DNA of 46,722 bases, taken from UHGV virus genome UHGV-0200285; one strand, written 5' to 3'. The notes below the pieces were generated by a model, which saw only the letters and a program-made list of their open reading frames with translations, had not been told where the DNA came from and searched no databases. This DNA comes from a virus. The first letter of the stretch is position 1. Each line of letters begins with the position of its first letter. This document shows positions 3,641 through 46,722 of this stretch, piece after piece. A program made the translations under genes and the position numbers.

Positions 3641-3922
3641 TAATATTGTGGTACTTTTTGTGGGAGTCATCCACTTACGCACTTTGTTTTGCTATGCCAG
3701 CAGTTAGCTTCTGCTGTAAAACTATTCATGCAGCAAACCTGCACTTCACCACAATGGTTAGCATACTTTTCCTGATTAAGTTATTGCCAAATATGCTGGC
3801 CATTGTTTCATGTATTGGACCTCCTTACTATTTATTAAAGAGATCCAATATTCACCACTCTGTCTGTATCTCCACTCAGGCATCAGCCTTCTTCGTTATC
3901 GTATACAGACAAACTATGAATT

Positions 3923-4138
3923 TTAATCAGTAATTATGACATTTGCTGCTGCAGGACCTTTAGCACCACTCTCTACAGAGAAGGTAACCTTTTGACCTTC
4001 AAATAAGGTTCGATAATTATCATTCTGAATCGCAGAAAAATGCACAAACACATCTTTACTACCATCAACAGGAGAAATAAAGCCAAAACCTTTATCAGCG
4101 TTAAACCATTTTACTAAACCAGTCATTTTATTTGACAT
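3923..4138 (-). CDS. cspB: cold-shock protein CspB-like
   Basis: 71 aa, [23 protein letters not shown]...; RNP1/RNP2 motifs (KGFGFI, VFVHF). Confidence 0.85.
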
Positions 4139-4437
4139 TCTACATTCCTTAACTTGAGCCTTTCGGCATAAATGGCTTGTATAACAGAAACGACTTCGTA
4201 CTTAATTGGAGAGACTCAAAGAAGGAATAAGTGAATAACACCTGAAATGAGAACTGCTTTAGTAAACTACTTCGTATATCGTCTGTTCTTCAAACCGACG
4301 CAATCATTAACGCATAGTTGAACATATGAAGCAATGTTTATTTTAGACATCCAGCCATCTTCAACCCCATCAAAAAACTATAGCTTTCTTCAGGAACGTG
4401 TGTATAGTGCGCCAAGTTATCAGTATTAAGGAATTTT

Positions 4438-10919: not shown

Positions 10920-11497
10920 GATGGCAGCCTCCGATAACAGTGAATTTCGCTGGTGGTGAACTGAACGGGGTTGGCGTAACCGGCGTTATCGGAAACCGGC
11001 GCACCTTTCGGTGCCCCCGTCCAGCCCACCATAATTTGGGTGTGCGCAGACGCAGACGATAAAAAAAACGCTGGCGCGTCATATATCGCCGATAACATTT
11101 CCAGGACGCCAATCCCGGCACCCGCTTTATAAGGTGCCTGAACAGTGTAACGTCCCGGAATGGAAGAATCAATGTGCTGGTGGTCCTTCACACTCAACAA
11201 AATCACGCCTGAATTTCCACAAAGGACTAAAGCACTCATGCGGGTAGTCTTTGCGAAGATAGATAACGCGCTGTGTTTCTGGTTCCCAACGAATAACATG
11301 GACATAAAGCCCTCTTCCGTCACGAAACCAGCGGTTAAGTTCCCGCACAACTCGCCCCCCACAGTCAGGTAAAGTTCTCTGTGGTTACTTACAGCCAGGT
11401 GATTTGGTAATCTGCATTCATGCCGTAACAACAGGTGTTCAGCGACACTGACCACCAGCTGTTGCGACAAACGGTTATTTGCCGTTAAACTGTTCAT
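10889..11497 (-). CDS. hypothetical early protein
   Basis: 202-aa ORF; 4-nt ATGA-type overlap with upstream gene; no family recognised. Confidence 0.45.
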   Translation of the reverse strand: MNSLTANNRLSQQLVVSVAEHLLLRHECRLPNHLAVSNHRELYLTVGGELCGNLTAGFVTEEGFMSMLFVGNQKHSALSIFAKTTRMSALVLCGNSGVILLSVKDHQHIDSSIPGRYTVQAPYKAGAGIGVLEMLSAIYDAPAFFLSSASAHTQIMVGWTGAPKGAPVSDNAGYANPVQFTTSEIHCYRRLPSWLLSQPSLV

Positions 11498-15101: not shown

Positions 15102-15638
15102 ATGTCATTTATTAAAACTTTTTCCGGGAAGCATTTTTATTATGACAAGATAAATAAAGACGACATCGTGATTAACGATATCGCGGTTTCCCTTTCAAAT
15201 ATCTGCCGCTTTGCCGGTCATCTTTCTCACTTCTACAGTGTCGCCCAACATGCGGTGCTTTGCAGCCAGCTGGTGCCGCAGGAATTTGCTTTTGAAGCGT
15301 TAATGCATGATGCAACAGAAGCGTATTGCCAGGATATTCCCGCTCCACTGAAACGCCTTCTTCCTGACTATAAACGGATGGAAGAAAAAATTGACGCCGT
15401 AATCCGTGAGAAATACGGGTTACCCCCAGTTATGAGTACGCCCGTGAAATATGCCGATCTTATCATGCTGGCAACCGAACGCCGCGATCTCGGGCTTGAT
15501 GATGGCTCTTTCTGGCCTGTACTGGAAGGCATCCCGGCAACAGAGATGTTCAACGTGATTCCACTGGCACCTAGCCATGCCTACGGGATGTTTATGGAAC
15601 GTTTTAACGAGTTATCGGAGTTACGCAAATGCGCATGA
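15102..15638 (+). CDS. HD-domain phosphohydrolase, YfdR-like 5'-deoxynucleotidase
   Basis: ORF 15075..15638; ATG at 15102 with GGAG RBS gives 178 aa; HD motif context (FAGHLSHFYSVAQHAV ... MHDATEAY). Confidence 0.65.
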   Translation: MSFIKTFSGKHFYYDKINKDDIVINDIAVSLSNICRFAGHLSHFYSVAQHAVLCSQLVPQEFAFEALMHDATEAYCQDIPAPLKRLLPDYKRMEEKIDAVIREKYGLPPVMSTPVKYADLIMLATERRDLGLDDGSFWPVLEGIPATEMFNVIPLAPSHAYGMFMERFNELSELRKCA

Positions 15639-16354
15639 ATGTTTTCGAAATGGAAGGGTTTCTTCGCGGGAAATGTGTACCGCGAGATCTGAAAGTGAAC
15701 GAAACAAATGCTGAGTACCTGGTACGTAAATTCGACGCGCTTGAAGCTAAATGTGCGGCACTGGAAAACAAAATAATACCAGTGTCAGCTGAACTGCCAC
15801 CAGCAAATGAAAGTGTTCTGTTATTTGATGCTAACGGAGAAGGCTGGCTGATTGGCTGGCGTTCTCTCTGGTACACCTGGGGACAAAAAGAAACCGGAGA
15901 ATGGCAGTGGACATTTCAGGTCGGGGACCTTGAAAACTTCAATATCACTCACGTTCAGCCGCTATATATAGCCAAGCCAGTGCCGATGGTGCCAGATGCT
16001 CGTCCGTCTTTAAATAATGGCATAGTCGGCTTTGATGAAGGCTGGAACGCCTGCCGCGCCTCCATGCTTAATGGTGCCGAACCTGTAAGCCAGACTTACA
16101 AGTTGAACGAGCTGTCGGGCAACTCTCCGGTAACTCCGGATGGTTGGATAAGCTGTAGTGAGCGAATGCCGAACGATAAACAGTATGTTTGGTGTTGGGG
16201 GAAGTTTTACGGCTGGACTGAGTGCGATACCTTCGAAGGGTATTACGATTGGTCGAAAAACAAATGGTGGGCAGTTACTGACGATGTGGAAGAATCGGCA
16301 TCGAAAGTAACCCACTGGATGCCGCTACAGGAACCGCCGCATGAGGTGAAGTAA
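15629..16354 (+). CDS. DUF551-type domain protein
   Basis: 241 aa; C-terminal WISCSERMP...W..W motif typical of the DUF551 phage family. Confidence 0.5.
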   Translation: MRMNVFEMEGFLRGKCVPRDLKVNETNAEYLVRKFDALEAKCAALENKIIPVSAELPPANESVLLFDANGEGWLIGWRSLWYTWGQKETGEWQWTFQVGDLENFNITHVQPLYIAKPVPMVPDARPSLNNGIVGFDEGWNACRASMLNGAEPVSQTYKLNELSGNSPVTPDGWISCSERMPNDKQYVWCWGKFYGWTECDTFEGYYDWSKNKWWAVTDDVEESASKVTHWMPLQEPPHEVK

Positions 16355-16548
16355 TGAACAACTTAATGACAACTAAACAAGTCGCCGACTTCTGTGGCGT
16401 TTCAATATCAACAGTGCTTCGCTGGAACAGCATAAACCATAGGACAGGTAAGAAATATAGACCAGACTTTCCTGATCCTGATATAAAATCCTGTCCCAAT
16501 AAATGGGCTTCACACAAGATTTATAGATTTGCAGGTATTATCGAGTAA
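16354..16548 (+). CDS. AlpA-family excisionase / transcriptional regulator
   Basis: 64 aa; LMTTKQVADFCGVSISTVLRW HTH; TAATG start-stop overlap with upstream gene. Confidence 0.65.
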   Translation: MNNLMTTKQVADFCGVSISTVLRWNSINHRTGKKYRPDFPDPDIKSCPNKWASHKIYRFAGIIE

Positions 16549-16834
16549 CGTTTATTAGTTTCGATGTTAGCCAACACATCTATGGCACAATGTCAAACCC
16601 AATCTTACTTCCTGCGCTGTACTAGAACGGCCAGCCCTGACTTCATAAATTATTAACCAACTGGGAACAAGTTAGCTAGTTGGTGATGGGTGTCAGTTGT
16701 CGAAAGTCCCCCCCCCACCATCACCACTAGCTGAGACTCTTCAGTGTTACAATTGCTTTAAATGGTTGCCAAAGTACTGAAATCGAGTCTAATAGTAAAG
16801 TTTATATCTCACAAACAGTATATAGGGACAGAGA

Positions 16835-46541: not shown

Positions 46542-46722
46542 TGCTCATTCCACGGACAAAAACAGAGAAAGGAAACGACAGAGGCCAAAAAGCTCGCTTT
46601 CAGCACCTGTCGTTTCCTTTCTTTTCAGGGGGTGTTTTAAATAAAAACATTAGGTTACGGCGAAGAAGAACGGAAACACCTTAAACCGGAAAATTTTCAT
46701 AAATAGCGAAAACCCGCGAGGT
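46542..46722. other. cos left-end region (cosB and first 4 nt of cosN overhang at the window end)
   Basis: Reverse complement of the window end reads ACCTCGCGGGTTTTCGCTATTTATGAAAATTTTCCGG, matching the start of the lambda genome after the first 8 nt of the cohesive end. Confidence 0.6.

Follow-up and report, generated by a model that had tools for sequence, protein, structure and literature searches.

Hypermutable homopolymers 5' of genes are a well-known kind of locus, and to our knowledge simple-sequence-repeat switches are rare in E. coli. In Bordetella, the poly-C tracts of fim2, fim3 and fimX overlap experimentally defined promoters, and their length alters transcript abundance (PMC1891110). 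In Helicobacter pylori, the T-tract of sabA adjoins the -35 element and acts through UP-like elements and the alpha subunits of RNA polymerase (PMC4081817). The locus described here is a run of nine C in a lambdoid phage genome of 46,722 nucleotides, referred to below as the window, by which we mean the whole stretch of DNA that was analysed. Like the Bordetella tracts, it is an intergenic C homopolymer 5' of a gene, polymorphic in length between close strains, and in both cases interrupted alleles are found in sister lineages (C6TC3 and C9TC8 in B. parapertussis, PMC1891110; CAC6 in E. coli prophages); unlike them, it is predicted to lie 49 nt upstream of the -35 element. Its resemblance to the sabA "rheostat" is that an intergenic homopolymer stands 5' of the core promoter, where its length could shift the axial alignment with upstream elements (PMC4081817), whereas it differs in being poly-C and in its distance of about five helical turns from the predicted -35. 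The locus also resembles the morons, or cargo cassettes, of lambdoid prophages, in which a single gene with its own non-coding flanks sits between excisionase and integrase and the cargo differs among relatives; however, a hypermutable tract does not belong to the ordinary description of a moron, nor does the occurrence of the same cassette, with its flanks, outside phages. Our literature search returned no description of this prophage-cargo tract with its natural C7, C8, C9, C11 and interrupted alleles, and the E. coli instance appears to be undescribed. We assign a probability of about 0.5 to reading the C run as a slippage hot spot of recent origin, neutral or nearly so, with at most weak tuning of expression.

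An earlier note on this DNA had described nine C flanked by an imperfect inverted repeat, with ACCAACT...AGTTGGT 5' of it, and all of these elements are present in the sequence where it had placed them. They are arranged as follows.

16708-16716, plus strand (G9 on the minus strand): C9 homopolymer, polymorphic between strains (C7, C8, C9, C11)
16674-16689: left arm of the inverted repeat, AGCTAGTTGGTGATGG, with the bulge at T16680 or T16681
16718-16732: right arm of the inverted repeat, CCATCACCACTAGCT
16656-16662: ACCAACT, complementary to AGTTGGT at 16678-16684, giving an alternative 7-bp pairing with the left arm

The flanking sequences TAGTTGGTGATGGGTG and CACCATCACCACTAGC occupy 16677-16692 and 16716-16731, respectively. 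The inner part of the repeat, returned by a repeat finder, is a perfect 9-bp pair of TGGTGATGG and CCATCACCA (16681-16689 and 16718-16726), the outer part is a perfect 6-bp pair of AGCTAG and CTAGCT, and a single bulged T separates the two, so that the imperfect repeat totals about 15 pairs. These arms enclose a loop of 28 nt (16690-16717), of which the C tract forms the 3' end. The ACCAACT/AGTTGGT pairing is specific to E. coli, and its length is at chance level. No other G or C run longer than six occurs in the 46.7-kb window; since base composition predicts 0.25-0.35 such runs per window (less than 0.1 when the window's own run-length distribution is extrapolated), C9 alone is only mildly unusual. 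The composite inverted repeat is rarer, with 0.01 expected per window in shuffles and two distinct ones observed, the second of which lies near 46572-46608 and was counted in two registers. Of 200 shuffles of the 121-nt region, 196 fold less well than the real sequence (z = -2.3). Total folding energy was discarded as a measure of unusualness, as -25.8 kcal/mol per 70 nt is reached by 6% of the window's 70-nt windows. As at contingency loci, the homopolymer is long enough to slip (a G/C run of about 8 or more). The fetched loci, about 320 kb in all, contain only one further G/C run of at least 8, a G9 in a Morganella prophage (locus L028, 5248-5256); it lies 65 nt inside a 213-aa ORF directly 3' of the orthologous cargo gene, and this ORF is a candidate frameshift-type phase-variable gene.

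The window is a genome of the 2H10/Glaedevirus type, with yfdP, yfdQ, yfdR, yfdS and DUF551 genes, and the tract lies in its cargo region, organized as listed here.

16354-16548, plus strand: excisionase-like helix-turn-helix (HTH) gene (xis), the last backbone gene before the cargo
16625-16834, plus strand: non-coding segment (about 210 nt) 5' of the cargo gene and mobile together with it, containing the tract and the repeat
16835-18775, plus strand: cargo gene of 646 aa, with DUF4365 at the N terminus (E = 5e-16) followed by TPR repeats
18785-18848, plus strand: long conserved stem-loop after the stop codon of the cargo gene, at the 3' end of the conserved cassette
18938-20173, minus strand: tyrosine integrase gene (int), convergent with the cargo gene

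The ATG of the cargo gene is about 119-120 nt 3' of the C tract. DUF4365 is a nuclease effector domain in short-Argonaute (SPARDA) systems (PMC10810196) and has likewise been described in an integron-borne defence system, which makes "candidate defence gene" a reasonable label for the 646-aa gene. The protein has weak matches to the PADLOC candidate PDC-M02A, while a PDB sequence search and NCBIfam returned generic TPR matches only. The interval from xis to int is a variable cargo slot, since its genes are entirely different in related phages; 2H10 (L011) has a 239-aa hypothetical protein there, E. coli O8:H8 16F5M1D1 (L012) an ATP-binding and a hypothetical protein, and TUM12357 (L013) two small hypothetical proteins. 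Homology of the backbone to related phages reaches 16605-16620, and that of the cassette sets in at 16625, from where the whole stretch up to the start codon is 80% identical to the segment 5' of the Serratia orthologue. Homologous upstream segments are also found in Salmonella (next to invH, outside any prophage), Morganella (in a prophage, after tail-fibre genes), Lonsdalea, Klebsiella, Enterobacter (next to a Cap4-type nuclease) and two conjugative-element-like loci; in total, the upstream segment and the DUF4365-TPR gene occur together in prophages, conjugative elements and chromosomal islands of at least seven genera.

The insertion boundary, which the earlier note had left to an alignment with related phages, is thereby placed at about 16619-16625, upstream of the repeat. 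That note had also offered the inverted repeat as a recombination scar marking the cargo boundary, which these alignments (to 2H10, O8:H8 16F5M1D1, TUM12357 and Serratia) tell against: homology of the cassette begins 50 nt before the repeat does, and other genera have sequence homologous to the repeat region ahead of their copies of the gene. Sitting at least 50 nt inside the cassette, the repeat and the C tract are not boundary marks. A 26-47-nt motif, GCTGTGAGTTCAAYGGGTCGATGCAACGCTATCC, recurs at cassette flanks and may be a shared boundary or recombination sequence; it is found after xis in TUM12357, which has different cargo (L013, 4322-4368), 5' of the DUF4365-TPR gene in Klebsiella (L040, 1300-1346), and about 66 nt 3' of that gene in the two conjugative-element-like loci (L033, 5008-5033; L034, 5007-5032). 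In the stem-loop at 18785-18848, AGCAACGAGCT pairs with AGCTCGTTGCT over 11 perfect bp, and the six-genus consensus has 27 pairs; many one-sided changes keep G-U pairs, there is one compensatory change, and no U tail follows, and this element is probably the 3' end structure of the cassette transcript.

Two further observations concern the surrounding genome. Past the integrase (20174-20420; 20404-22500), the window matches from about 20404 the prfC-side end of related prophages; as E. coli lysogens part from it at about 20418 and run into yjjG while the window continues with prfC-side sequence, it looks like the attP form of an excised or complete phage and not like an integrated prophage. 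Within 15629-16354, the window has a 257-bp deletion relative to seven E. coli lysogens, which fuses yfdS (aa 1-108) in frame to a 206-aa DUF551 protein (aa 73-206) and leaves a hybrid ORF of 241 aa.

The 229 nt 5' of the cargo gene occur in seven of 5,426 complete E. coli genomes, and this gene adjoins them every time. Alignment of the window with these seven genomes (eight sequences, about 311-313 columns) gives 309 invariant columns and four variable ones, all of which are tract length: C7 in EC2341, C8 in MB98, C9 in the window, 04-00955, EC13 and VG38-53E1, and C11 in 2022H047 and 2022H048. A DNA pattern search of the GTDB genome collection returned no match, the 229-nt segment had no match among phage records, and the IMG/VR and JGI metagenome collections yielded only three further copies. 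Outside the complete genomes, C8 is found in two IMG/VR contigs, and C9 in two metagenome contigs (one from the human gut) and two draft genomes. The tally for E. coli prophage copies is then C7 in one, C8 in three, C9 in eight and C11 in two, and these are assembly-level calls, some from complete assemblies whatever their sequencing platform, in which C7 is a single record and C11 two records that are probably clonal.

Between 16343 and 16919 the tract is the only variable site among five copies that have up to about 12 SNPs within the gene, and no indel other than the tract itself is present in the 2.4 kb around it, with copies 5 to about 280 SNPs apart over 8 kb. Length also differs between records of one protein allele (WP_001546420.1 with C9 and C11, WP_106108196.1 with C9 and C7), arguing that length changes happened repeatedly. 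A sister allele in which the tract is interrupted (CAC6), CACCCCCC, has an identical length in all eight independent samples; the lysogen copies closest to it, 04-00955 and 2022H047, are 15-17 SNPs per 7 kb away, and it provides a natural control. The earlier note's view that the tract is prone to slippage is borne out, as lengths of 7, 8, 9 and 11 occur amid identical surroundings and even within one protein allele. Rather than being invariant across strains, which would have counted against the earlier note, the tract varies between them (C7-C11), and as at contingency loci the repeat number differs, in these assembly-level data, between close strains with identical flanks.

Long-read assemblies miscall homopolymers, and this general knowledge, together with the single C7 record and the two probably clonal C11 records, is what could make the length variation a sequencing or assembly artefact around a tract that is stable in vivo. 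We regard such an artefact as quite improbable: C8 and C9 each recur across independent assemblies of different kinds (complete, draft, IMG isolate and metagenome), C11 was reproduced in two separately assembled genomes, and the 2.4 kb around the tract are free of any other indel. A slippage hot spot remains the preferred reading of these data.

One route by which the tract could act is RNA structure. The earlier note had suggested that the inverted repeat terminates the pL operon, and the locus does resemble intrinsic terminators and the lambda sib/tI retroregulation hairpins in placing a stem-loop 3' of the last gene of the leftward operon. Unlike them, it has no U tail and a large loop, lies outside the phage backbone and is not conserved. 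The stem is followed by TGAGACTCTTCAG, without a U tract, and the loop of 28 nt compares with the short loop (3-8 nt) of an intrinsic terminator; a terminator scan found no site on the plus strand, and the repeat is absent or degraded in relatives, so the suggestion was abandoned. A broader proposal is that the hairpin ends or processes transcripts leaving xis (the pL operon), insulates the cargo gene and prevents antisense transcription into the convergent int, with the C tract serving as its loop or as a C-rich Rho-loading patch. The predicted stem of 15-17 bp (-25.8 kcal/mol), its position between xis and the convergent int, the C-rich, G-poor composition of 16700-16740 and the greater perfection of the phage-borne E. 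coli repeat relative to that of its relatives are all in keeping with this. Yet the terminator features just described speak against it, the repeat is part of the cassette and not of the phage backbone, phages of the family with different cargo are without it, and covariation gives no support, so that we consider this proposal improbable.

A conserved RNA structure was likewise rejected: on nine sequences the RNAalifold energy is -15 kcal/mol, the covariation term is +0.68 and compensatory pairs number only two, and the E. coli hairpin is absent from the consensus. Rfam searches of the upstream region, at gathering thresholds and at E-values up to 1, returned nothing relevant; elsewhere in the window, gathering-level matches on the minus strand were to the cspA thermoregulator, C4 antisense RNA and isrK Hfq-binding RNA (3860-4299, 10949-11036 and 11061-11137). 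Across the natural lengths C7 to C11 the predicted hairpin energy stays at -25.4 to -25.8 kcal/mol, and since it is the same at every tract length, slippage cannot work through the hairpin.

A second route would be translation of a small upstream ORF (ATG at 16687; MGVSCRKSPP...) that spans the tract and whose frame slippage would shift. An ORF of 18-23 codons exists in the same frame in most relatives, and its frame is kept by C8, C11 and CAC6 but not by C7 and C9. However, variable sites fall on the three codon positions as 9/7/9, without an excess at the third, the ORF is interrupted by an in-frame stop in one relative and has no ATG in another, GGTG abuts the ATG so that no usable Shine-Dalgarno spacing is left, and the commonest allele, C9, is out of frame. 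We rejected this ORF and find its involvement hardly credible.

The remaining route is transcription initiation, which depends on where the promoter lies.

16766-16793, plus strand: best promoter candidate, with -35 TTGCCA (16766-16771), a 16-nt spacer and -10 TCTAAT (16788-16793; TTTAAT in relatives)

This candidate falls within the best-conserved block 5' of the gene, GTTACAaTTGCTTtAAATgGTTGCCAAAgTACTGAAATCGAGTyTAATAG. All 11 aligned sequences contain TTGCCA-N16-T(C/T)TAAT, the only candidate that they share, and in E. coli it has the top plus-strand score; the ranking comes from a rough position-weight matrix with which chance alone gives a score of about 9 some 1.8 times per kb. Position 2 of the candidate's -10 is not the usual A. 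As a stricter sigma-70 scan called no plus-strand promoter and the ranking rests on the rough matrix, the promoter remains a prediction. Transcription would then start near 16800 and the tract would lie at about -84 to -92; the 5' UTR would measure about 35 nt and include GGGA as its ribosome-binding site. On the minus strand, TTGTGA-N17-TAGACT (16786-16814) has a rough position-weight score of 11.4 and would direct transcription leftward through the repeat toward xis; this element is confined to E. coli and scores below the scan's 9/12 threshold.

The claim that slippage could make expression phase-variable thus divides in two. Its first half, slippage, stands; its second half, an effect on expression, does not follow from the anatomy, in which the tract falls in no supported ORF and is separated by 49 nt from the predicted -35 downstream of it. 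Contingency-locus repeats lie in an ORF or in or against the core promoter, and this tract does neither, a provisional placement given that the promoter is predicted. The predicted start is downstream of the tract, which also speaks against a direct role.

The tract could still act as a contingency locus or rheostat in either of two ways. Its length might alter how far, or at what helical phase, a regulator site formed upstream by the AGTTG repeats and the left arm stands from the core promoter; or the tract might set the spacer of a second promoter further upstream. Expression of the defence-type gene would then be stochastic among lysogens. The length polymorphism with invariant flanks, the proximity of the tract to the ATG (119 nt downstream) and to a conserved repeat array, and precedents for promoter tuning by upstream tracts (PMC4081817, PMC1891110) are compatible with this, and a costly nuclease-type defence gene would be a plausible target for bet-hedging. 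The possible second promoter in E. coli combines TTGTCG (16696-16701) with CACCAT (16716-16721), and the homologous segment of Salmonella, Lonsdalea and Klebsiella reads TTGTCA-N15-TACCAT, with the tract position as its spacer. Against these points, the conserved -35 is 49 nt away, the upstream promoter-like element would have spacers of only 11-15 nt for C7-C11 and a -10 hexamer that matches at 3/6 positions, the presumed operator is degraded because E. coli has lost three AGTTG copies, and a homopolymer at this place is peculiar to the E. coli lineage of the cassette. On balance we think this unlikely, while taking it more seriously than any other alternative considered here. In a bolder version, which we hold to be doubtful, a single-gene nuclease-TPR defence cassette would have become a true contingency locus in a temperate E. 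coli phage; slippage would retune a potentially toxic abortive-infection gene through repeat phase or the second promoter and lysogens would hedge immunity against its cost.

The comparison with other genera indicates how the tract arose. At its position every other genus reads TGTCGCCCGC(C/T), one unit of an AGTTG repeat array, and the poly-C is hence a recent change in the E. coli lineage; no homopolymer is found at this position in any other lineage of the cassette. The direct repeat of the relatives is AGTTGTC-AAA-AGTTGTCG, with the tract position as its second unit, and the Serratia-type sequence at the tract is TGTCGCCCGCC. The array copy replaced by the C tract is AGTTGTCG in relatives and AGTCCCCC in the window, where the following motifs are left.

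16678-16682 and 16695-16699 (within 16678-16699), plus strand: two AGTTG motifs left of an array for which three to five copies are usual in relatives

AGTTG is the most enriched 5-mer in the upstream regions of the relatives, with 4.1 copies per 230 nt, whereas about 0.2 copies are expected of a random 5-mer (230/1024); the E. coli copy has lost three and kept two. The motifs of the array share one orientation, in 16625-16800 as in the homologous regions of L014, L028, L029, L033, L034, L036-L038 and L040, and its AGTTGTC-AAA-AGTTGTC units are spaced at one helical turn. A binding array for some regulator, mostly lost in E. coli, is a plausible interpretation. The pure tract is one base away from the interrupted allele (A-to-C, CAC6 vs C8), a change whose direction cannot be polarised, and five from the ancestral-type sequence. 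The two arms of the inverted repeat match each other far better in E. coli than in all of the relatives: Serratia and Salmonella both have mismatches, and the Enterobacter group has no equivalent pairing.

These observations suggest the following course of events for the hot spot. Poly-C arose recently, in the E. coli phage lineage only, within the non-coding region of about 210 nt that moves with the DUF4365-TPR gene, taking the place of one TGTCGCCCGC unit of the conserved AGTTG array. The pure tract would slip at replication and yield the observed lengths of 7, 8, 9 and 11. It would do so in the loop of the lineage-specific 15-bp imperfect repeat and 49 nt upstream of the conserved -35, positions from which length changes leave the coding sequence, the spacing of the core promoter and the stability of the hairpin unaltered. 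At most, a length change would shift the helical phase of the residual upstream repeats relative to the promoter, and such an effect would be weak tuning instead of an on/off switch. Three points weigh against a neutral hot spot. The promoter assignment comes from a rough position-weight matrix, at a score that is frequent by chance (about 1.8 per kb). The tract is less than 150 nt from the start codon, which is within the regulatory range in Bordetella (PMC1891110) and Helicobacter pylori (PMC4081817). Finally, neutrality leaves the much more perfect E. coli repeat unexplained; its perfection conceivably hints at selection or at templated (quasi-palindrome) mutation, which is speculation.

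As it stands, the locus is a clear case of a newly formed hypermutable homopolymer with a built-in control, the interrupted allele, and the non-coding flanks of a widespread, uncharacterised DUF4365-TPR cassette are now mapped. The position of the tract is also a warning that spurious variants will appear there in strain typing and assembly comparisons. If tract length does tune expression, this would be a natural case of stochastic, heritable simple-sequence-repeat control of a prophage defence-type gene in E. coli, and its natural C7, C8, C9, C11 and interrupted alleles would make it a handy system.
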